Shown here: piece after piece, positions 5,207 to 24,754 of the stretch
Layout of the letters: every line of letters begins with the position of its first letter
How positions within the stretch are numbered: the stretch's first letter is position 1
From: an uncultured bacterium
GTDB taxonomy: Bacteria > Oederibacteriota > PGYV01 > CAWJRG01
Direction: 5' to 3'
Assembly (NCBI GenBank): GCA_963845185.1
Contig: CAWJRG010000005.1
Span: 480,001 to 544,000 of the forward strand
Length of the DNA: 64,000 nt
Notes under the pieces: model-generated
What the model was told of the DNA's origin: nothing
Seen by the model: the letters and a program-made list of their open reading frames with translations, nothing else
Databases searched by the model: none
Program-made: the position numbers and the translations under genes

Positions 5207-6636
5207 TATTTTGTATTCCCCCCGATGTTTTCCAGGCGCATGATAATGTCGTTCACTTCTTTTATGTTTTCCAGCGCAAGCTTGTTATAGGGGTCGATAG
5301 AGAGTATCTTTTCCCATTCTGCTTTCGCTCCTTTGTAATCCTCTTTCATGTATTTATCCACGCCTTGTCTGTAAAGCTGCAGGATTTGCTCGCTGTAAAC
5401 CTGCGCACCCTGCTTTTCAATGATATTTTTCAGCAGCGCGTAATAATATTTGATGTTTATGTAATTCGGGTCATCTTTGTAAACCGTTTCAAACTCCGCG
5501 TAGGAGAGTTTGTAATCATTCGCATAATACCCTTCCAGGCCTTTTGCATAGTGAAATGACTTAAAATACTCCCCTTTGACCGCATCATTCTCGTGCGCCA
5601 GCATGGATGCCTTCAGCTTCTCAAGTTCCTTTTTGGCGTTTTCGAGGTCTTTGGCAACAAGTTCTTTTGCTTTTTCCGCGATTTTCTTGTCTTCAATTTC
5701 CTGTTTATTATTGCGCATTGATGTCATGCTGTCGCCGAACCTGACTTTCAGCGATACCCTTTGCTCAGTATCAATCTCGCTCATAAACATCCCGTAATCA
5801 ACCGATACCGTGCCTAATATATCAAGGCCCGCGCCGATTGAAGTAATGCTGTATGAATCGTATCCAGCCCTAAGATAAAGCATCTTGAAAAATCTCAGCT
5901 CCACTCCCAGTTTATATTCAAAATCAACCGCGGTTGGCAGGGTGAAATCAGCGTATAACCCCATGCGTGCATCCGGATTTTTTAAAAAATCCCTAAAAAA
6001 ACTTAAGCCCAGGGTGCAATACCTCGCTATGCTGTCAAAATCATTTTCAAGTTTTATCTGAGGCTCGATTAAATTTTTCACTATCAATCCAGCGTTCATC
6101 TGGTTTTCTCCGGATTCATAATTATATAAAAGCCCGAAGTCAGCGGCAAACCCCGTGTCGTGCGCGCTGTCCAGTCCCTGGTAATCCAGTTTAAGGCTGA
6201 TGCCCCCTGTGAGGTTTTTGATGAAAAAACTGCTTCCCCATCCGCCTATTATTTCTATAAGGTCCTGTGATGTTATATTTGTTGGCGCGCCTGATGAGTC
6301 CCTTAATTGAATGTTGCTTGTGCCCAGCCTGGCAAAAGAAAGCCCGAACGCCCCGTAATCAAGCGTGGGTATCCCGGCTGCTGCGTACTGGTACACGCTG
6401 TCAGAAAGTAAATTTATAGATGCTGCCTGAACCTCAATCCTGTCAATGGTGTCAAGGCCGGCGGGGTTGAAATAAATGCTTCCGCTGTCGTTTATTCCCG
6501 ATACAAAAGCACCGCCGAGCGTCTGCGCCCTCACGCCTATTCCTATGTCAAGCGGCGAAGTGAGCCCCGCGACGGACGCGAAAGCAAAAGCCCCTGTAAG
6601 GAATATAAATCCCGCCGTGAACGCGTATTTTTTCAT
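5206..6636 (-). CDS. PorV/PorQ-like outer-membrane beta-barrel with C-terminal coiled coil and TPR
   Basis: Signal peptide; GVRAQTLGGAF...YFNPAGL signature; YLRAGY strand; TPR-like C-terminus. Confidence 0.7.
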   Translation of the reverse strand: MKKYAFTAGFIFLTGAFAFASVAGLTSPLDIGIGVRAQTLGGAFVSGINDSGSIYFNPAGLDTIDRIEVQAASINLLSDSVYQYAAAGIPTLDYGAFGLSFARLGTSNIQLRDSSGAPTNITSQDLIEIIGGWGSSFFIKNLTGGISLKLDYQGLDSAHDTGFAADFGLLYNYESGENQMNAGLIVKNLIEPQIKLENDFDSIARYCTLGLSFFRDFLKNPDARMGLYADFTLPTAVDFEYKLGVELRFFKMLYLRAGYDSYSITSIGAGLDILGTVSVDYGMFMSEIDTEQRVSLKVRFGDSMTSMRNNKQEIEDKKIAEKAKELVAKDLENAKKELEKLKASMLAHENDAVKGEYFKSFHYAKGLEGYYANDYKLSYAEFETVYKDDPNYINIKYYYALLKNIIEKQGAQVYSEQILQLYRQGVDKYMKEDYKGAKAEWEKILSIDPYNKLALENIKEVNDIIMRLENIGGNTK

Positions 6637-15481: not shown

Positions 15482-15941
15482 TTAAATTTCCTCCTGAGTA
15501 TTCATTTAAAATTTTTTCAACTGAGTCGTAGGAAAAACCGCGCGACATGAGGCTCCTGTAAATAAATTTTTTTGCCTCTTCCTCGGTTTTTCCCTTTATT
15601 TTGTAGAGTTTTTTCAGGATATATTTTCTTGCCGTATCAGTCTCGTCTATGTTTTTAATTTGCTGTTCAAAATCATCCTGTTTAATGCCTTTTTGTTTCA
15701 ACTTCTTCATTATTATATATTTGCCCCAGGGCCTGTCTTCTGAATATTTTTTCACAAGCCTGGCGGCATAGGTTTTATTGTCAATGAAACCGTGCTCTTT
15801 CAGGTATTTTAATGTTTTTTCCGCGGCATCCCTGCTGTATCCTCTGTCCGCCAGTTTCTCAAGAAGTTCTTTTTCTGAAAAATCCTTTATTTTAAGGATT
15901 TTCAGCATGTATTTCCTTGCTTTTTCAAGCTCATTTTCCAT
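15468..15941 (-). CDS. recX: Regulatory protein RecX
   Basis: SEKELLEKL, GFIDNKTYA, LKQKGI, LMSRGFSYD; lies upstream of alaS. Confidence 0.85.
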   Translation of the reverse strand: MENELEKARKYMLKILKIKDFSEKELLEKLADRGYSRDAAEKTLKYLKEHGFIDNKTYAARLVKKYSEDRPWGKYIIMKKLKQKGIKQDDFEQQIKNIDETDTARKYILKKLYKIKGKTEEEAKKFIYRSLMSRGFSYDSVEKILNEYSGGNLIEQQ

Positions 15942-15949
15942 ACTAAATG

Positions 15950-15978
15950 ATTATAAAGTATTTACACTCAAAAGTCAA
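15950..15978 (-). promoter_or_regulatory. Sigma70 promoter for recX-alaS operon, probably leaderless
   Basis: TTGACT-N17-TATAAT; only 8 nt separate the -10 box from the recX ATG and there is no SD. Confidence 0.7.
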
Positions 15979-16004
15979 AGGTCAAATTCCATGCAATTTC
16001 CCCC

Positions 16005-16113
16005 TGTTAATTACTGCTGCAAAATTCGGAGCATGAGGACCAGGTATTTCGGAGCAAAAGGACCAGTCGTTTCGGCCGAAAAGGACCAGACATTTCGGTC
16101 CAAAAGGACCAAC
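16005..16113 (+). repeat. IS21 left end with four IstA-binding repeats
   Basis: TTCGG(N)AGGACCA units with TTCGG at 16025, 16048, 16071 and 16094 (23-bp period). Confidence 0.9.
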
Positions 16114-16212
16114 TTATCCACTTATTTCAGGATACTATAACGCAGCCTGAAATCCAAGCATAATCCTCAAAAACTGCCATACTGTGCCATTCTAAAATTA
16201 GGAGGCACACAG

Positions 16213-17796
16213 ATGGCACAAAAGAGGTTATGCATGAGAAAAAGCAAAGAGATTTTGAGGTTGAAGTACGAGTTAGGCAAGACAGAAAGAGAAATACGGG
16301 ACATATGCGGGCTGAAAAGCAAGACAACGGTCCACAGGTGCCTTGAAAGAGCCGGGAAGGCGGGTATAACATGGCCGTTGCCCGAAGGCATGACCGAGGA
16401 CGTGCTGGAGGCACAACTGTTTCCGGCCATACAGCCTTGCAAGGAATTCAAAAAAATCGCAATAGATTGCGCGCATGTTCACGAACAGATGCAGATGGAT
16501 AACGTAACCAAAAAACTCATTTGGGAAGAATATGTCGAATCAAATCCAAACAACCACTATGGATATACTCAATTCTGCCAATATTACAACAGATGGACAA
16601 ATAACCTGAATTTCAGCATGAAACAGGTATATAAGGCCGGGGAAAAAGTATTTGTGGATTTTGGCAGCGGGTTATCCGTAATCGATAAAGAGACCGGCGA
16701 GATAATGAAGACGCATGTGTTTGTAGCAGTGCTCGGTGCGTCAAAATATTCGTATGCGGAAGCGGTATTTAACCAGGACCTGCCGTCATGGATATTGGTA
16801 AACAGACATATGCTTGAATTTTTTGGATGCGTACCTCAGGTAATAATCCCGGATAATTTGAAGGCGGCAGTAGATAAAGCTGATTGGTATGAGCCGTTTA
16901 TTAACCGGTCATACGAAGAATTTGCCGGACATTACGGGACAAATATATTTCCAACAAGGCCCAGACAGCCCAGGGATAAAGCTCTTGTAGAAAATGGCGT
17001 CAGACTGGTCAAGCGGTGGATTCTGGCTAGGCTGCGGAACAGGATGTTTTTCAGTCTCGCAGAGTTAAATGCGGCAATACGCGAACTGCTTGAGAAGTTT
17101 AACGACAACATAATGAAAAAAGTCGGTAAATCAAGGAGAGAACTATTCCTCACGTTGGACAAACCCAATATGAATCCCCTGCCTGAACATCCTTTTGAAT
17201 ATGCGGAATGGAAAAAAGCCAGAGTTGGTTGTGATTACCACATATCTTTTGGGAAGCACATGTATTCCGTGCCGCATTATTTGAAAGGCAGCGAAATAGA
17301 CATAAGAGCGACAAGTTCAATCGTAGAAGTATATTTAAAGGGCAACCGGATATGCTCGCACAAAAGAAGTCACAAAGAACATGATTTTACCACGGTAAAA
17401 GAGCATATGCCGGAAAGACATCAGGCAGTAGCCGGTATAACCCCGCAAAGCCTATTGGATTGGGCTGAAAAAACCGGGCCCAATGTCCTAAGAATGGTAC
17501 AGACTAAACTCGATTCAAAAATGTTTTATGAACAGTCATACAGGAGCTGCCTTGGAATATTGAACCTTGCCCGTAAGTACGGGAATGAGCGCCTGGATAA
17601 GGCGTGTAAACGTGCCTTGCACTTCGGCACTATGTCCTACCCTAAAGTTTCAAGTATTTTAGAACAAAAACTTGAAGATCAGGAATATGAAAAGTTGTAT
17701 ATAACAAGGCCTCACTTGAACCACGAAAATATCCGCGGCGGTCAGGAATTTGCAGACAGACTTCTTGAAAAACAAAAAACGGAGGAAATACAATGA
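16213..17796 (+). CDS. istA: IS21 DDE transposase
   Basis: GEKVFVDF, PDNLKAAV, PRDKALVENGV, YSVP, HENIRG. Confidence 0.97.
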   Translation: MAQKRLCMRKSKEILRLKYELGKTEREIRDICGLKSKTTVHRCLERAGKAGITWPLPEGMTEDVLEAQLFPAIQPCKEFKKIAIDCAHVHEQMQMDNVTKKLIWEEYVESNPNNHYGYTQFCQYYNRWTNNLNFSMKQVYKAGEKVFVDFGSGLSVIDKETGEIMKTHVFVAVLGASKYSYAEAVFNQDLPSWILVNRHMLEFFGCVPQVIIPDNLKAAVDKADWYEPFINRSYEEFAGHYGTNIFPTRPRQPRDKALVENGVRLVKRWILARLRNRMFFSLAELNAAIRELLEKFNDNIMKKVGKSRRELFLTLDKPNMNPLPEHPFEYAEWKKARVGCDYHISFGKHMYSVPHYLKGSEIDIRATSSIVEVYLKGNRICSHKRSHKEHDFTTVKEHMPERHQAVAGITPQSLLDWAEKTGPNVLRMVQTKLDSKMFYEQSYRSCLGILNLARKYGNERLDKACKRALHFGTMSYPKVSSILEQKLEDQEYEKLYITRPHLNHENIRGGQEFADRLLEKQKTEEIQ

Positions 17797-18533
17797 GCAT
17801 AGAACAGACAATAGACAAGCTTATTGAAATGAAGTTGACAGGTATGTCACAGTCCTACAAAGAAAGAAGGATAAAACCGGATCACAAAGACCTCTCGTTT
17901 GACGAGTTTTTTGGGCTTGTGGTAGATGACGAGCACATATACAGAAAAAACAAACGACTTAAAAAACTTTTAAAAAAAGCCAAATTTAAATTCGCTTCTG
18001 CCTGCCTTGAAGATATTGATTACAGGCAGCAAAGAGGCATGCTAAAAACGCAGGTGGTAAATCTTCAAAATCCATCGTGGCTGGAAAATCACCAGAATAT
18101 TCTCATTACTGGCCCTACAGGCATCGGAAAAACATATCTTGCCTGCGCGTTTGGTACCTGGGCATGTAGAAATGGCTTTACAGTCTATTATTCCCGCTGG
18201 TCAAGGCTTCTCGCTGATATACACGCTTCCCGCAGCGATGAGAGTTATCTTAAGTATCTTCGAAAACTCGCTAAGATAGATTTGCTTATAATCGATGATT
18301 TTGGAATGAATTCTCTTTCCGAGAATAACAGAGATGATTTTTTTGAAATTATTGAAGAAAGGTACTTGATCGGCTCTACTATTATTACAAGCCAGTTGCC
18401 TATCAAAAATTGGCACGAATTCATGGGCGAGGCTACAATCGCAGACGCAGTAATGGACAGGCTTCTTCAGGTTTCGTATAGATTCGAACTAAAAGGAGCT
18501 TCCATGCGGAAACAACAAAAAAACATCGAATAA
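17793..18533 (+). CDS. istB: IS21 helper AAA+ ATPase
   Basis: GPTGIGKT, LLIIDDFG, TSQLP..WH, ADAVMDRL; ATGA overlap with istA. Confidence 0.97.
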   Translation: MSIEQTIDKLIEMKLTGMSQSYKERRIKPDHKDLSFDEFFGLVVDDEHIYRKNKRLKKLLKKAKFKFASACLEDIDYRQQRGMLKTQVVNLQNPSWLENHQNILITGPTGIGKTYLACAFGTWACRNGFTVYYSRWSRLLADIHASRSDESYLKYLRKLAKIDLLIIDDFGMNSLSENNRDDFFEIIEERYLIGSTIITSQLPIKNWHEFMGEATIADAVMDRLLQVSYRFELKGASMRKQQKNIE

Positions 18534-18645
18534 AGCATTTGGTTTTATCGGCGGTTATTAAAATCTTGATAAGCGCAAATGAAAGTAATATAATAATATT
18601 ACTGAATTAGTTGTTTATTTTAAATAAAATCGCGAGGTGTTCAGA

Positions 18646-19059
18646 ATGCCTGAATTATTAAGATTTGGAGTTTCATTGGACAGCCACCTTCTTAAAAAAT
18701 TTGATAACCACGTTAAAAATAACAAATATCCAACAAGGTCAAAAGCCATAGCCGATTTGATAAGAAAGGTATTTGTGGAACAAGAATGGGAGGATGGCAA
18801 AAATGTAGCTGGAGCCATAATAATTGTTTATGACCATCACAAGAGAGATCTAGTAAATAAGTTGATTAACACACAACACGATTTTCAGGACATTATAATA
18901 GCCTCACAGCATGTTCATCTTGATCACAACAATTGTCTCGAAGTGGTCGTTGTAAAGGGGAAAACGTCAAAAATTCGTGAGCTGGCGTCGATTTTAAAGT
19001 CCGCAAAAGGAGTAAAACACGCAGCTTTATCCGCCGCCACAACTGGTAAAAATTTTTAA
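18646..19059 (+). CDS. nikR: Nickel-responsive regulator NikR
   Basis: RFGVSL ribbon-helix-helix, YDHH, QH..., HVHLDHNNCLEV; SD GAGGTG before ATG 18646. Confidence 0.95.
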   Translation: MPELLRFGVSLDSHLLKKFDNHVKNNKYPTRSKAIADLIRKVFVEQEWEDGKNVAGAIIIVYDHHKRDLVNKLINTQHDFQDIIIASQHVHLDHNNCLEVVVVKGKTSKIRELASILKSAKGVKHAALSAATTGKNF

Positions 19060-19113
19060 TTCCATGTCAGCAATTCTATACTTATAATAATTAAACAATG
19101 TGGAAAAATCCTG

Positions 19114-19163
19114 TTGACATCTGGCTTCTATTCGTGCTACATTTTTTATAAACGTGGCACGAA
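19114..19163 (+). promoter_or_regulatory. Sigma70 promoter overlapped by a putative NikR operator
   Basis: TTGACA (19114)-N18-TACATT with extended TG; inverted repeat TTCGTGCTAC-N13-GTGGCACGAA at 19131-19163. Confidence 0.8.
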
Positions 19164-19175
19164 AGGAGCAATGGT

Positions 19176-19865
19176 ATGAATAAAGAAGGGTTAATATTAG
19201 CTTTGTTTTTTGTTCTTTTCGTCGTGGATAATGTATTTGCCTCAAGACCGCTTTCTACCGACGACGCGTACACAATCGAAAACGGCAAGACCGAGATAGA
19301 GCTGGGCTATGATTTTGTAGGAGGAACGGCTGGAGAAGATAATACACATATGGCCGGCATCCAGGTAGGACACGGCATTACGGAAAAGATGGACATAAAG
19401 GTCGTATTCCCCTATTCCGTGAGCCCAGCAAGAGGCGCGGAAGGTGTTTTAATCGGCTTAAAGCTGACGGTTTTAAGTGAAGCCGAAAATATACCCAGCG
19501 CTGCGGTGAGCGTTTTTACCGAGCCGGGGCAGCCGGAATACTCGGTAAACGGCATAATCTCAAAAACGCTGGGTTCTGTCAGCCTGTACCTGAATTTTGG
19601 CTATGAATCAACTGGTGTTCCGGGTGAGCAGGGAGGATATACATGTTCGATAGCCGGGGATTACAATATAACCGAAAATATCTCGATCGGAGCGGAAATA
19701 ATTGACTCAACGGAAGAAAAGTTTATTCATCATAATGTTACGCCGTTTATAGGCGCACGTTTTTCAGTGGCAGAATGGATCACGATAGATGCAGGAACAG
19801 GAATTAACTTTAGCAAAGAATCTCGATTAGTTCATGTGACATCTGGATTGACGTTAAAAATATAA
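19176..19865 (+). CDS. Putative outer-membrane beta-barrel transporter
   Basis: Signal peptide, RPLSTDDAYT N-terminal motif, amphipathic strands; first gene of the NikR-controlled operon. Confidence 0.65.
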   Translation: MNKEGLILALFFVLFVVDNVFASRPLSTDDAYTIENGKTEIELGYDFVGGTAGEDNTHMAGIQVGHGITEKMDIKVVFPYSVSPARGAEGVLIGLKLTVLSEAENIPSAAVSVFTEPGQPEYSVNGIISKTLGSVSLYLNFGYESTGVPGEQGGYTCSIAGDYNITENISIGAEIIDSTEEKFIHHNVTPFIGARFSVAEWITIDAGTGINFSKESRLVHVTSGLTLKI

Positions 19866-19881
19866 TTAAAAGGAGGAATAT

Positions 19882-20568
19882 ATGCACATACCTGATGGTT
19901 ATCTCGGCCCACCTACCTGTGCCGTAGCTTTTGCGGCTATGGTACCTATTTGGACGGTTGCCGTAAATAAGGTTAGGAAAACGCTCAAGACAAAACAGGT
20001 CCCTTTACTTGCATTAGGAGCGGCGTTTAGTTTTGTTATAATGATGTTCAATGTCCCTATACCTGGAGGTACGACCGGTCATGCTGTAGGCGGTGTTATC
20101 ATCGCAATACTGCTTGGCCCATGGGCTGCGTGCATAGCTATTACCGTAGCGCTCGTGATACAAGCGTTGCTTTTTGGTGACGGTGGAATCACAGCATTGG
20201 GCGCAAACTGTTTTAATATGGCTTTTGTCATTCCATTTACTGGCTACTATCTGTATAAACTTTTTGCTGGAAAGTCAAAAATTGGCTCAATGCGGCAAAT
20301 AATATCAGCTGGGGCCGCAGGATACCTAGGAATAAACCTTGCGGCTTTTTGTGCAGGAGTGGAATTCGGTTTACAACCTATTTTTCATCACACAGTATCC
20401 GGCCAATCTTTGTATTGTCCTTACGGTTTGAACGTGGCGGTACCAGCAATGTTGCTTGAGCACATAATACTTTTCGGCTGGGTGGAAGCAATCGTGACGG
20501 CGTTGGTGCTTGTTTACATCGGAAAACAAATGCCCGAGCTATTACAGAACGGGGGTGCAGATAAATGA
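19882..20568 (+). CDS. cbiM: ECF Co/Ni transporter substrate-binding component CbiM/NikM
   Basis: MHIPDGYL N-terminus, GTTGHAVG, QALLFGDGGITALGAN. Confidence 0.95.
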   Translation: MHIPDGYLGPPTCAVAFAAMVPIWTVAVNKVRKTLKTKQVPLLALGAAFSFVIMMFNVPIPGGTTGHAVGGVIIAILLGPWAACIAITVALVIQALLFGDGGITALGANCFNMAFVIPFTGYYLYKLFAGKSKIGSMRQIISAGAAGYLGINLAAFCAGVEFGLQPIFHHTVSGQSLYCPYGLNVAVPAMLLEHIILFGWVEAIVTALVLVYIGKQMPELLQNGGADK

Positions 20569-20903
20569 AGCCAACGATAAAATTGTGGATAGGACTAGCA
20601 GTGTTGGCAATCCTGTCACCGCTCGGATTGCTGCTGCCGTTATTTTTTAAGGCCGGGGCTGCGTGGGGCGAGTGGGGCACTGATGAAATAAAACAAATTG
20701 CAGGCTATGTTCCAGAGAAACTGAAAAAATTATCGGAATTATGGAAAGCTCCAATGCCTGATTACTCTTTTGCGGGCTGGGAGAATAAAAACATGGAGCA
20801 TTTGAGCTTTGCTTATATTTGTTCGGCAATTTTAGGCATAATAGTAATTGTTGGGATATCTTTTATTATAGGCAAGCTGCTTGTAAAAAAAGAGGAAAAA
20901 TAA
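20565..20903 (+). CDS. ECF accessory membrane component (NikN/PDGLE-like)
   Basis: LSPLGL..AWGEWG..APMPDYS, two TM helices; between cbiM and cbiQ. Confidence 0.8.
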   Translation: MKPTIKLWIGLAVLAILSPLGLLLPLFFKAGAAWGEWGTDEIKQIAGYVPEKLKKLSELWKAPMPDYSFAGWENKNMEHLSFAYICSAILGIIVIVGISFIIGKLLVKKEEK

Positions 20904-20904
20904 A

Positions 20905-21756
20905 TTGAAACGAAACAGTTTTATTGAAAAAACAATCCTCGCTGCGGTATCTATTATAAAAGAGTCTGTTTTTTCAGAAGAAATAGCATCCAAAATAGGT
21001 TTTCTGCAGGGACTGGATGCCAGATTTAAGGTTTTGTCTATTTTTGTTTTCGTGTTCTGCGCTCTTTTTCTGAGACATGAGCAATTGCTTCTAATACTTT
21101 ATGTATTATGTCTTGCGCTTACGGTTTTATCCGGCGTAAGTCTTATTTTTTTCTTTAAACGTACTCTGCTGTTCATACCCCTTTTTTCATTTTTAATAGT
21201 ATTCCCTTCAATATTCGGTTTTTTTACGCCGGGACAAGTAATATGGGAGGGACATATCGGCAGTGTTGTGTTTTCAATAACCAAACAGGGGCTAAATGGC
21301 GCTGTATTAATTATAACGCGTGTAACGGTTTCGGTATCCCTTATAATCTTACTCAGCCTTACAACCCGACATTTTGAATTGCTTAAGACGCTTAGGACGT
21401 TCGGAATACCGGATATTTTTGTAATGGTGGCCGGAATGTGTTACCGCTACATATACCTTTTCGCTGGAATTGTCGAGAACACTTTTCTTGCTATAAAGAG
21501 TCGAACCGGAGGAATCATAAAGACAGGGCACGGCCAAAAAATAACAGCCTGGAATATAGCAATGCTGTGGCGTAGGTCATATATATTAAATGAAAATGTA
21601 TACGACGCTATGCGCTCACGCGGTTTTACGGGTGAACCGGTATCGTTAAATGCGTCTATGGCAAAAATGCGGGATTTTATCTGGTTTGCATTTTTTATTA
21701 CTGCGGCAGCATCTTTTATTGCTCTTGATTATTTTATTAAAGGCTGGAAAACATAA
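20905..21756 (+). CDS. cbiQ: ECF transmembrane component CbiQ/NikQ
   Basis: LDARFK, YRYIYLF, AMRSRGF. Confidence 0.92.
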   Translation: MKRNSFIEKTILAAVSIIKESVFSEEIASKIGFLQGLDARFKVLSIFVFVFCALFLRHEQLLLILYVLCLALTVLSGVSLIFFFKRTLLFIPLFSFLIVFPSIFGFFTPGQVIWEGHIGSVVFSITKQGLNGAVLIITRVTVSVSLIILLSLTTRHFELLKTLRTFGIPDIFVMVAGMCYRYIYLFAGIVENTFLAIKSRTGGIIKTGHGQKITAWNIAMLWRRSYILNENVYDAMRSRGFTGEPVSLNASMAKMRDFIWFAFFITAAASFIALDYFIKGWKT

Positions 21757-22583
21757 TGAATGAAAATATTTTTGAACTAAAAAATATTGAGTATACTTAT
21801 CCTGGTAAAGTGCCAGCCCTAGCAGGCATCCGTCTTGATATAAAAAAAGGTGAACGTATAGCGCTAATAGGCGCAAACGGATCGGGGAAGTCAACTTTAC
21901 TTACTATGCTGAATGGTCTTATTTATCCGAGTAGTGGAACAATTGTTTCTTTCGATAGAGAACTTTCAGAAGCAGCGTTTAACGACATGGATTTTGTAAA
22001 ATTTTTCAGGGCAAAAACAGGTTTTGTATTCCAAAATCCCGAAGTACAACTTTTCTGCCCTACCGTGAGAGAAGATATAGCTTTTGGTCCGCTCTGTATG
22101 GGAATGCCTGCTGAAGAAGTCCGGAAACAAACGGAAGAAACAGCAGCAGAACTCGGTATAACAGAACTGCTCGACAGGCCGCCGCATCGTTTAAGCATAG
22201 GCGAAAAAAAGAAAGTGGCGTTAGCCACGGTGCTGGTGATTAACCCGGATGTCATGCTTCTTGATGAGCCAACAGCTGGGCTTGACCCGCTCACTACTCA
22301 ACATATAGTGGACATACTAGCCAAGGCTTCCACGGAAGGAAAAACAATAATAACAGCAACACACGACCTTCATATAGTTGAGGAGATATCTGACAGAGTG
22401 ATAATTCTATCAAGGCATGGTAACATAGCTGCCGAAGGTAAACCTGACGTACTTTTGAATAACTTTAAATTGTTGGAAGAAAACAATCTCGTTCATGCAC
22501 ATGGACATAAGCATGCGGATGGTACTACAATGCACGTACATCCGCATCAGCATTTACATCACAAACACGAACACAAAGAGTGA
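21756..22583 (+). CDS. cbiO: ECF ATPase CbiO/NikO with His-rich tail
   Basis: GANGSGKST, FQNPEVQLF, LSIGEKK, DEPTAGLD; C-terminal HAHGHKH...HVHPHQHLHHKHEH. Confidence 0.93.
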   Translation: MNENIFELKNIEYTYPGKVPALAGIRLDIKKGERIALIGANGSGKSTLLTMLNGLIYPSSGTIVSFDRELSEAAFNDMDFVKFFRAKTGFVFQNPEVQLFCPTVREDIAFGPLCMGMPAEEVRKQTEETAAELGITELLDRPPHRLSIGEKKKVALATVLVINPDVMLLDEPTAGLDPLTTQHIVDILAKASTEGKTIITATHDLHIVEEISDRVIILSRHGNIAAEGKPDVLLNNFKLLEENNLVHAHGHKHADGTTMHVHPHQHLHHKHEHKE

Positions 22584-22687
22584 GTGGACGCCTTAAGCGG
22601 ATTTTTCAGATTTCCGGACAGATAAAAAGCTTGAAAGAAGCAAAATTTTAAGCTATTATTCACATTGGATTAAGCTTGGATGTTGCG

Positions 22688-22770
22688 TGGTTCTTTTAAA
22701 ACGAATTGTTTGGTCCTCATGAAACGAAAACCTTGGTCCTTTTGACCGAAATTTGCACTGCGTTAATACA
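22688..22770 (-). repeat. IS21 right end with three inverted IstA-binding repeats
   Basis: TGGTYC...CGAA units at 22688, 22711 and 22734; terminus ...GTTAATACA mirrors the left TGTTAAT. Confidence 0.85.
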
Positions 22771-22878
22771 GGCAATATATTGCGTTTTGCTGGAAAATAC
22801 AGGGATTTATTGACGAATAGCTGCAGGTAAGGCAAAACCTTTGACAAGACTCTTCGGCACGCTGTCTTTGGCGTGGAT

Positions 22879-23304
22879 TTAAGTAAAAATTGAAATTATA
22901 ATGCCGGTTATAAGGACAATCACTGCGTAAAGCGAGCCCTTCCAGGGCGTATCAGCCTTTGTATCCTTGTACAAAGAATAATTAACGGCAAATATGCCGA
23001 TGCAGTATATTAAAGCCACGCAGGGAATTGAATATTTATAGAATATCCCCGGCAAAAAATAATTCACAACAGGAAAAATCATCAATAAAATTGATATTAC
23101 CAAAAAGCCGAGGCCCACAAGCCTTAGAAATGACAAAATTAAAAATTTAAGCGGGCCTTCTATTTCATCCCACGGCCTGCCGGCAGCCTGTTCTTGAAAT
23201 GGCAAAAATTTCCCGGATAAAAAGCTTTTTAATGCCATAACCAGGAAGACCAGGCCTACTAAAAAAAATAATACTATTGGTATTGCTTTAATGATTTCCG
23301 TCAT
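22879..23304 (-). CDS. Hypothetical 4-TM membrane protein
   Basis: MTEIIKAIP start after a GAGG SD; four hydrophobic segments. Confidence 0.7.
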   Translation of the reverse strand: MTEIIKAIPIVLFFLVGLVFLVMALKSFLSGKFLPFQEQAAGRPWDEIEGPLKFLILSFLRLVGLGFLVISILLMIFPVVNYFLPGIFYKYSIPCVALIYCIGIFAVNYSLYKDTKADTPWKGSLYAVIVLITGIIISIFT

Positions 23305-23485: not shown

Positions 23486-24622
23486 TTATTGCGAGTGCCA
23501 CACATCGTTTACCTGGGTGCCGTATTGACCGCCTGCTTCAAGCCCGCCTATGACCCACATTTCATTATTAAACACAACGCTGCTGTGGAATTCCCTTGCA
23601 GGAAAAGCAGTGTATTGATTGACAATGCTCCAGTTCATACCGTCCATCGAGCCCCAAATATCATCGAGCAGATTTCCGTGATAGTCGCTGCCTGCTATGA
23701 CGTACATTATGTTGTTATATAAAACCGCGGAATGGCCGTCCCTCGGCGAAAACGCTGCTGCTTCTGTTCCAAGCGACCAGGATGTCCCGTCAATTGAATA
23801 AAACGTGTCATTCATATCATAACCATAATTATTGACGCCCCCAAGAATCCACAATTGATTTGAGGTAGTAATACTCGCGAACTCGTCCCTTGTGTCAAAC
23901 GCTGCCGAAGCCGCGGCCTCGGTCCATGTTATGCCGTCTGACGAATACCATGAATCATTCAAGAAGTTCCCTGACTCTTCGGATCCGCCTATTACCCACA
24001 TATAATTATTAAATACCACACTGCAATGGCCGTAGCGCGGATTAAATGCCGCGCCGCCTGTGGCTTGCGCCCAGTTTTGCCCGTCCGACGAATACCAGAC
24101 ATCGTTTAATGCAGCGCCGTTATCGTTGTCTAAAAAGACATCCCATCCGCCAATAACCCACATTAAATTATTGTATACCACACTGCTGTGGCTGTCCCTC
24201 GCGCTGAAAGCCGCGCCGCCCGTGGCATCATTCCAGTTTACGCCGTCGCTGGAATACCATACGTCGTTATAATCCCCATCATTGTTGTTAAATCCACCTA
24301 TTACCCACATTTCATTATTAAACACTACGCTTGTGTGGCTGTCCCTTGGGCTAAAAGCCGCATTGCCAGTGGCTACCACCCAGATGCCACCAGGATAAGG
24401 TGTCGGAGAAACAGTGAAGGTCGGAGAGATTGTATAAGTTGGAGATATGGTGGGTGTTGTAGTCTTTGTCCATAATGTAGCTATTGCGGTCAGCGTCAAA
24501 TTAGGAGTCGGCACAAAATGGCCTTGCAATCCCGGCCCCGAAGGTGTTGTTTTTTGGCTGCATGAAAATGCGATCAATGCTAAAACCAAAAAAATCAAAA
24601 TAAAAATATAATATTTTCTCAT
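23486..24622 (-). CDS. Kelch-repeat beta-propeller lipoprotein with Thr/Pro linker
   Basis: Lipobox AFSC; TPTISPTYTISPTFT linker; six AAF.PR..H..VVFNN.MWVIGG..NDVW.S.DG..W repeats. Confidence 0.85.
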   Translation of the reverse strand: MRKYYIFILIFLVLALIAFSCSQKTTPSGPGLQGHFVPTPNLTLTAIATLWTKTTTPTISPTYTISPTFTVSPTPYPGGIWVVATGNAAFSPRDSHTSVVFNNEMWVIGGFNNNDGDYNDVWYSSDGVNWNDATGGAAFSARDSHSSVVYNNLMWVIGGWDVFLDNDNGAALNDVWYSSDGQNWAQATGGAAFNPRYGHCSVVFNNYMWVIGGSEESGNFLNDSWYSSDGITWTEAAASAAFDTRDEFASITTSNQLWILGGVNNYGYDMNDTFYSIDGTSWSLGTEAAAFSPRDGHSAVLYNNIMYVIAGSDYHGNLLDDIWGSMDGMNWSIVNQYTAFPAREFHSSVVFNNEMWVIGGLEAGGQYGTQVNDVWHSQ

Positions 24623-24754
24623 TTTTACCTCCAAGCACGAGTTTATTTTGGAAACTTTAAATAATATGCTGATTTATATAATATTTGACGAATCCAAAAG
24701 GTCAAAAGTTTACTGGTTTAACACGCCATCGCATGCTTTAAATCCGGTTCTTCG

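Follow-up and report, generated by a model that had tools for sequence, protein, structure and literature searches.

Does an insertion sequence (IS) of the IS21 family end directly behind its two transposition genes, or can it enclose a complete metal-uptake operon? The question is raised by a locus in a 64,000-nucleotide stretch of DNA from an uncultured bacterium of the Oederibacteriota (contig CAWJRG010000005.1, positions 480,001 to 544,000; here called the window), in which istA and istB are followed by six genes that resemble a regulated nickel or cobalt transporter. An earlier note on this DNA, made from the sequence alone, had interpreted the whole as an IS21 transporter IS (tIS) with a metal-uptake cargo. 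Our analysis supports this interpretation: a 6.74-kb unit recurs in the host genome with the same termini and with target duplications, and we put at roughly 0.88 the probability that window positions 16018-22757 are an IS21-family tIS that encloses istAB and a six-gene nickel-uptake module and that was inserted as one piece at at least three sites.

We searched the host genome (11 contigs, 3.5 Mb, 99.4% complete by markers) with window positions 15500-23300 by blastn. There were four hits, whose identity started at 16017 or 16018 and ended at 22757; the left part of the element had three matches and the right end had two. The hit on contig C5 was the window's own copy, which is complete. The hit on C8 covered 16018-22611 at 99.94% identity and reached the contig end. 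The remaining two lay on C6 (16017-20845, reaching the contig end) and on C1 (19367-22757, beginning at the contig end). Because the C6 and C1 hits overlap by about 1.5 kb within the element and because the left flank on C6 ends with TTTAC and the right flank on C1 starts with TTTAC, a 5-bp duplication, they are best read as one copy split by the assembler. The flanks were mutually unrelated (three distinct left flanks and two distinct right flanks), and there are at least three insertion sites in the genome, two of them with 4- to 5-bp duplications. Since the same termini stand at different flanks with duplications, istAB moved together with the cargo, a movement read from the three copies themselves. 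The earlier note had suggested looking for further insertions by BLAST, and near-identical copies did appear at two further sites; it had also considered that the right end might belong to a separate decayed IS, and against this the 6.74-kb unit is repeated at other sites with both termini unchanged.

Identity among the copies also set the boundaries of the element, which is 6,740 bp long and reads TGCA...TGCA, with TGCAAAATTCGG at the left terminus and CCGAAATTTGCA at the right. The pattern TTCGN{6,7}AGRACCA had seven matches in the window where 0.10 was expected, a number reached in 0 of 100 shuffles, and all seven were confined to the two ends of the element: four direct repeats with a 23-bp period on the + strand (16025-16111) and three inverted repeats with the same period on the - strand (22688-22750). 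The same scan found no end-like repeat directly behind istB in the window. The ends are thus TG...CA terminal inverted repeats with multiple transposase-site-like repeats (4 + 3), and the earlier note was correct both in counting four left and three inverted right repeats and in observing that the matching right end is absent after istB. Its end coordinates, 16005 and 22770, were each 13 bp too far out, and the TGT...ACA termini that it read there belong to flanking DNA outside the identity between copies. It was also wrong in seeing no target-site duplication, because CTGC flanks both of the correct termini (16014-16017 and 22758-22761); the left flank reads ...ttaattaCTGC, followed by TGCAAAA of the element. 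Target duplications in the IS21 family are in the range of 4 to 8 bp, and the element has short direct duplications of CTGC in the C5 copy and TTTAC in the C6/C1 copy. Its G+C content is 41.4%, compared with about 45% in the surroundings. A candidate outward promoter across an end-to-end junction was rejected: the right end closes with a -35-like hexamer, TTTGCA, and no convincing -10 was seen in the left end by eye.

The transposition genes are those of an IS21 element (Table 1). IstA is of the rve type (Pfam rve, 35.9 bits with a cut-off of 32.6, and Mu-transpos_C_2), and istB lies directly downstream, with its start (17793) overlapping the istA stop (17796). Both genes had been judged intact, a judgment with which the 100% identity of IstA across the three copies and the scores above NCBIfam and Pfam cut-offs agree. 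IS21 elements of the ordinary kind enclose only istAB in about 2 to 2.7 kb; this one has 6,740 bp and six further genes. It was rightly said not to be a composite transposon: each copy has a single istAB, neither another left end nor another istAB is found near 22757, and of the three IstB matches that pass the cut-off in the genome, every one lies within the full unit, with no cargo-less copy. Among the open reading frames (ORFs) inside the unit, no TnsA/TnsD/TniQ-like or resolvase genes were seen. The passenger genes lie within a single pair of IS ends served by one transposase module, as in a tIS.

The cargo genes, all on the + strand, are in the order nikR, barrel, cbiM, PDGLE, cbiQ, cbiO, so that the gene order given earlier (nikR, an outer-membrane barrel, cbiM-N-Q-O) was borne out by the ORF, Pfam, and NCBIfam assignments. 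The first product is a NikR protein by NF003381 and by Pfam NikR_C (109.3 bits), which supports the earlier statement that the module carries its own repressor. The barrel protein itself had no Pfam or NCBIfam match in direct scans, and its identity was settled by an HMMER search, by the predicted fold, and by Foldseek. The HMMER search returned 271 homologues at E values up to 0.001, and a word-index search returned 2 matches; in an alignment of 70 sequences (the query, 68 of the 150 HMMER homologues listed, and one word-index match), 22 of the 70 matched PF13557, an outer-membrane barrel family. The AlphaFold2 model (mean predicted local distance difference test score [pLDDT] of 91.2, predicted template modeling score [pTM] of 0.82) has a signal helix and 12 strands, and its top Foldseek matches were the 12-stranded outer-membrane channels FapF, the COG4313 channel 4rl8, KdgM, and NanC (E values of 2.5e-8 to 1.1e-5). 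The barrel assignment of the earlier note thus holds.

Downstream of the barrel lie the components of an energy-coupling factor (ECF) transporter of the NikMNQO/CbiMNQO type, with an N-like partner, a T component, and an ATPase. The best NCBIfam models for the ATPase, CbiO, are ECF and cobalt ATPases, all under their equivalog cut-offs. The substrate-binding S component aligned to nickel-bound TtNikM2 (4M58) with 266 bits over 216 residues, and the residues Met1, His2, His67, and Gln94 of TtNikM2, which are metal ligands or their support according to the available text of PMC3945884, are conserved in it. The main alternative for the cargo is that it is a cobalt (B12-related) CbiMNQO transporter and not a nickel system. 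The top NCBIfam models are indeed named "cobalt transporter CbiM," CbiQ, and cobalt ATPase, and the planar site of TtNikM2 can also hold Co2+, as stated in the part of PMC3945884 available. This reading is nonetheless unlikely, given that the operon stands behind a NikR equivalog and a NikR-operator-like site, that the S component scored only 60.5 bits against the CbiM of 5x3x, and that the small partner is of the PDGLE type, which forms one protein with the S component in the long version, PRK07331 (the cargo's PDGLE protein aligned to the C-terminal third of this fused 323-aa CbiM model). Moreover, an Rfam scan of 15500-23300 at E values up to 1 revealed no cobalamin riboswitch or other Rfam family, its sole match being a chance miRNA-family hit (E value of 0.98). 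Judging from these homologies, the cargo transporter would take up Ni2+.

Two promoter-like sites and one operator-like site precede the cargo genes (Table 1). The operator-like inverted repeat was compared with the predicted NikR signal of delta-proteobacterial nik operons, GTGTTAC-[N13/14]-GTAACAC with variants such as GTGccAC (PMC545781, in its accessible portion). A degenerate operator pattern had three matches in the 3.5-Mb genome, all in the three copies, where about 0.27 was expected, and this count is a weak test because the degeneracy was set after the site had been seen. An operator of the module's own upstream of the barrel gene is plausible, and NikR would then control the internal operon. 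Separately, the promoter-like site upstream of nikR has its -10 overlapped by a perfect 8+8 palindrome, AGTAATAT-AATA-ATATTACT (18584-18603), which may serve in autoregulation or may be no more than an AT-rich stretch.

All homologues of CbiM, NikR, the barrel, PDGLE, CbiQ, IstA, and IstB that were found in the host genome are on the element; those of NikR numbered three by tblastn. A NiCoT permease was not found in the host genome, and contig C9 has genes for at least two [NiFe]-hydrogenase large subunits. One could therefore ask whether a once-mobile element has become fixed, so that the copies are now domesticated nickel-uptake loci of the host with an inactive istAB. These being the only recognizable NikR and CbiM genes of the host, their loss would be costly, and no intermediates were seen in contigs of public sequencing runs. 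We nevertheless consider domestication quite unlikely, since IstA and IstB are full length, above family cut-offs, and identical in the three copies, and since the copies differ by no more than four substitutions outside contig ends, which points to recent spread.

As for the insertion sites, the C5 copy is flanked by a 190-aa ORF and recX and was inserted some 40 nt past the promoter-like site of recX. A 382-aa Kelch-repeat beta-propeller protein (23486-24634, - strand), unrelated to the element, adjoins this site. A terminator-like hairpin holds the C6/C1 copy in its loop (G000:C6:~142520-142561 with G000:C1:~331380-331420); with the element removed, the reconstructed site reads aaagacgccc-TTTAC-tgaataaaacaaaggggtgtcttt and continues into a T run.

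Several observations weigh against a nickel-carrying tIS at three sites. Contig ends interrupt two of the three copies: that on C8 stops 146 bp short of the right terminus, with no right flank assembled, and the C6/C1 copy is pieced together from two contigs that overlap at their ends and carry the same 5-bp duplication. The three sites may also be spread over different cells, should the assembly be a mixture of strains. A 4-bp match such as CTGC arises by chance once in 256. No transposition intermediate and no joint of the right end to the left end was found in the Logan contigs of four public runs, none of which bridged either end. On the cargo side, the NCBIfam name for the S component is "cobalt transporter CbiM," and the ATPase falls under equivalog cut-offs; of the 14 half-site positions of the delta-proteobacterial consensus, the operator-like site agrees at only 11, and the genome-wide pattern was widened to fit it. 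As an observation on the public runs, one peat metagenome (run X2) contained contigs identical to both C5 flanks (15702-15977 and 22783-23083), which stop short of the insertion point.

Part of this evidence would also suit copies that arose by segmental duplication, recombination, assembly artefact, or the binning of several strains, and not by IstAB transposition. Three of the four blastn hits touch contig ends, the differences in the C6 and C1 hits bunch there and resemble assembly noise, and the public-run contigs held no circle or tandem junction. However, the shared sequence is bounded exactly by TG...CA termini with IS21-type repeats, two copies have 4- to 5-bp direct duplications in unrelated flanks, the four substitutions peculiar to the C8 copy are not near the contig end, and strain-level insertion polymorphism would itself be transposition; we hold such an origin to be very improbable. 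It is scarcely credible that an ordinary IS21 with only istAB mobile stands beside a resident chromosomal nik operon and that the right-end repeats are the leftover of a decayed IS, for although IS21 elements usually enclose istAB alone, as related elements do, and solo end fragments occur in the lineage (a 54-nt left end, 98%, at locus L018), there is no right end behind istB, all three IstB matches are in the full unit, and the same 6.74-kb unit has the same termini at other flanks with duplications of their own.

Table 1. Coordinates of the element, its genes, and its candidate regulatory sites in the 64,000-nucleotide window
Feature	Position	Strand	Basis or remark
Left target-duplication copy, CTGC	16014..16017	.	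same four bases after the right terminus
Left end (IRL, left inverted repeat): terminal TGCA and four repeats TTCG-N7-AGGACCA, presumed IstA binding sites	16018..16111	+	identity between copies starts at 16018
istA, IS21-family DDE transposase, 527 aa	16213..17796	+	NCBIfam NF033546, 253.2 bits (cut-off 160)
istB, AAA+ helper ATPase, 246 aa	17793..18533	+	PF01695, 230.1 bits (cut-off 24.1)
Cargo segment, ~4.1 kb	18534..22650	+	spacer between istB stop and conserved right-end box
Promoter-like TTGATA-17-TATAAT upstream of nikR	18566..18594	+	11/12 consensus positions
nikR, nickel-responsive repressor, 137 aa	18646..19059	+	NCBIfam NF003381 equivalog, 171.9 bits (cut-off 105)
Promoter-like TTGACA-18-TACATT before barrel gene	19114..19143	+	
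NikR-operator-like inverted repeat GTGCTAC-N13-GTGGCAC	19134..19160	+	overlaps promoter-like site, 16 nt before barrel gene
12-stranded outer-membrane beta-barrel channel, signal peptide, 229 aa	19176..19865	+	AlphaFold2 and Foldseek
cbiM/nikM, ECF S component, 228 aa	19882..20568	+	NCBIfam PRK11909, 355.6 bits (cut-off 225)
PDGLE-domain small membrane protein, 112 aa, NikN/CbiN-like S-component partner	20565..20903	+	PF13190, 41.5 bits
cbiQ, ECF T component, 283 aa	20905..21756	+	TIGR02454, 135.1 bits (cut-off 111.8)
cbiO, ECF ATPase, 275 aa	21756..22583	+	Pfam ABC_tran, 109.7 bits
Right end (IRR, right inverted repeat): three inverted 23-bp-period repeats and terminal ...TGCA	22688..22757	-	identity with the C1 copy stops at 22757
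Right target-duplication copy, CTGC	22758..22761	.	

We then looked at where related elements have their right ends. The full unit was absent from the 60 relatives searched, among which there was no genome of the same genus, and an IstA search of species-representative genomes returned nothing above 52% identity. A metagenome scan with IstB yielded 52 loci, 30 of which were sequenced on both sides and could be searched behind istB for an inverted match of the left end. The best match (E value up to 0.05) was within 200 nt of istB in 18 of the 30 loci and 1.1 to 1.7 kb behind it in 4 (E values of 7.6e-13 to 2.6e-6); no clear match was found in the other 8, two of which (L048 and L049) have contigs that end inside cargo. 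In ordinary relatives, 2.6 to 2.9 kb long, the right end is 50 to 190 nt behind istB. Two such relatives, from the same order and phylum (L008 and L009), have three repeats with a 23-bp period starting about 45 nt behind istB and end in ...TTTTGTA or ...TTTTGCA. As a side observation, about three tandem copies of a ~157-nt unit with the hairpin GCGGCCTGAAAGGCCGC lie just behind the IS of L008 (1870-2260).

The nearest relative, L034 (66% identity in IstA and 77% in IstB), has its right end directly behind istB, with the box tattATCCACATTGGATTATGCTTGG some 17 nt past the istB stop; the counterpart of this box in our element is at ~22650-22680. Because the box is only about 17 nt behind istB in L034, the cargo of our element is the segment of about 18534-22650, placed in a spacer of about 17 nt. 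Capture of the cargo by read-through to a surrogate right end was considered and rejected, the distal end being an authentic IRR with the inner box of L034. In another peat metagenome (run X4), contigs of a ~93% identical IS begin exactly at 16018, and two variants of this relative depart from the element at 18524 and 18533, at the istB stop. The 225 to 255 nt that these variants have past istB do not begin with the right-end box. To judge from their sequence, the ~93% relatives may carry different cargo. An exact search of species-representative genomes with 24 nt of the left end found a single locus, L018, in a bog metagenome-assembled genome of the same order (G021:C15). There, the solo left end occupies 5209-5262 with no part of istA following, apparently a scar left by an element of this IS lineage.

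Operons of the same gene order also occur free of any IS. One is in a genome of the same order, G017, where amino acid identity is 76% for CbiM, 70% for PDGLE, 66% for CbiQ, and 69% for CbiO, and another is in G048, of the same phylum, which also has a barrel gene (35%). Neither the 19.9-kb stretch of G017 nor the 8.9-kb contig of G048 contained IstA or IstB matches. A resident operon like these was probably captured as the cargo.

The metagenome loci also contained a second group of cargo-bearing IS21 elements. Nine IstA sequences formed a tight clade (SH-like approximate likelihood ratio test [SH-aLRT] support of 100), and all six members with sequence behind istB have cargo (6/6); the contigs of the other three end no more than 29 nt after istB. 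L050 carries cbiM and PDGLE within a target duplication of AACTTA, and L052 carries DUF4395, cbiM, and PDGLE within a duplication of GAAC. L048 and L049, which have two different left flanks, carry a 318-aa barrel-like ORF (PF13557 at the cut-off), DUF4395, and cbiM; the barrel of our element and that of L049 did not match significantly by BLASTP (E value of 0.075). An APH-type kinase is the cargo of L057 (duplication TTGA). L053 has a radical-SAM-like ORF before the right end; its left end is off the contig and its istA, cut by the contig end, is outside the tree. L051 has the same cbiM and PDGLE cargo as L050 and also its left flank, with a different right flank and no target duplication. 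Compared by position (L051 126 and 3762 with L050 8276 and 11912), the two share the left flank and the element and differ in the right flank, which could reflect a rearrangement between copies or a chimeric contig.

We compared the right-hand 170 to 215 nt of four cargo variants of this clade with those of the cargo-less L081, and homology resumed some 100 nt before the terminus, at the box TTGTAGTTTTTCAGC; the different cargoes therefore occupy one and the same slot. (In L081, positions 421 and 3365, the right end is 129 nt behind istB, and a second right-end-like sequence lies about 2.9 kb further on.) Like our element, the second clade (L048-L053 and L057) has its cargo placed after the istB stop and before the right end's inner box, has target duplications, and carries mostly Ni/Co ECF S components, in one variant with a barrel ahead. 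Unlike our element, it is without nikR, cbiQ, and cbiO. Its IstA is 45% and its IstB 59 to 60% identical to ours, and its CbiM proteins are 33 to 37% identical to the CbiM of the element. On the IstA tree, the two branches with cargo are separated by lineages without it. A tree joining both cargo groups was worse by 110 log-likelihood units (approximately unbiased test, p-AU = 6.7e-14), a comparison made on a quick tree search and with a group named after the tree had been seen. Separate captures by the two clades would be a simpler reading of these trees than repeated loss.

Taken as a tIS, the element would work as follows. IstA would bind the repeats at both ends and pair them, IstB would select and present the target, and the whole segment would move by the usual IS21 route. 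NikR would repress the internal operon when nickel is plentiful, and the module would otherwise supply nickel, for example, for the [NiFe] hydrogenases of the host. Transposition would have lifted the copy number of the module to three. The cargo occupies the only internal position at which an insert disrupts neither a gene nor an end, a position that the second clade also uses, mostly for cbiM-based cargo.

The element is the only recognizable nickel-import and nickel-sensing system of its host. Insertion sequences are usually seen as carrying only transposition genes, and the few published tIS are ascribed to other families and mostly have a single ORF; IstA and IstB of IS21, a structural model system, are here linked to a 4.1-kb regulated operon. 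Together with the second clade, the element suggests that IS21 ends can mobilize several kilobases and that cargo is tolerated at a defined place. Trace-metal uptake, besides drug resistance, would thus travel on transposable elements in uncultivated anaerobes. Both IS21 lineages come from bacteria of anoxic sediment or peat, and their loads range from cbiM plus PDGLE to a NikR-controlled operon with a channel. We tentatively propose, at a little under even odds, that IS21 has a tolerated cargo slot behind istB, which at least two lineages have filled with Ni/Co ECF genes in a recurrent, selected partnership and not in a one-off capture; on this proposal, transposition would both spread and amplify trace-metal acquisition. 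Annotators should be aware that an IS21 element may extend for kilobases past istB before its far end is reached.

Compared with known systems, the element shares with IS21 and IS5376 a DDE transposase IstA, an overlapping IstB, TG...CA termini, several sites in each end, and short duplications. It differs from the family, of about 2 to 2.7 kb, in its 6.74 kb and in the six genes added between istB and the right end; it has four left and three right repeats, whereas the ends of IS5376 contain the repeated binding sites L1/L2 and R1/R2, with a 5-bp target duplication cited (PMC10122671, in its available text). The term tIS denotes IS-like elements with passenger genes (PMC3129680 and PMC9330008, as far as their accessible text goes), and in ISfinder and TnCentral usage these have, like our element, one transposase module, one pair of inverted repeats, passengers inside, and movement as a unit. 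Cases added more recently are ISDsp3 of IS6, with one extra ORF (PMC7986276), and three of IS1202, with one extra ORF each (PMC10132070). In the literature searched, which did not extend to ISfinder itself, we found no published tIS of the IS21 family and no insertion sequence with CbiM. The element is thus of a known tIS kind in a family without a described case in that literature; it differs from described tIS in its family and in its load, a regulated six-gene operon that is unusually complete and self-regulated.

Tn7- and Mu-like elements pair a DDE transposase with an ATPase. Composite transposons and those of the Tn7, Tn552, and Tn402 types carry cargo, as our element does; unlike composite transposons, it has a single istAB and one pair of ends. 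Its cargo has the S, N-like, T, and A components of NikMNQO and CbiMNQO ECF transporters in their usual order, and its operator-like site is of the GTGYYAC-N13-GTRRCAC type that the available portion of PMC545781 predicts upstream of delta-proteobacterial nik operons. In contrast to the known NikR- and ECF-type nik operons, the complete regulon is here enclosed by a transposable element, and this genome has it three times.

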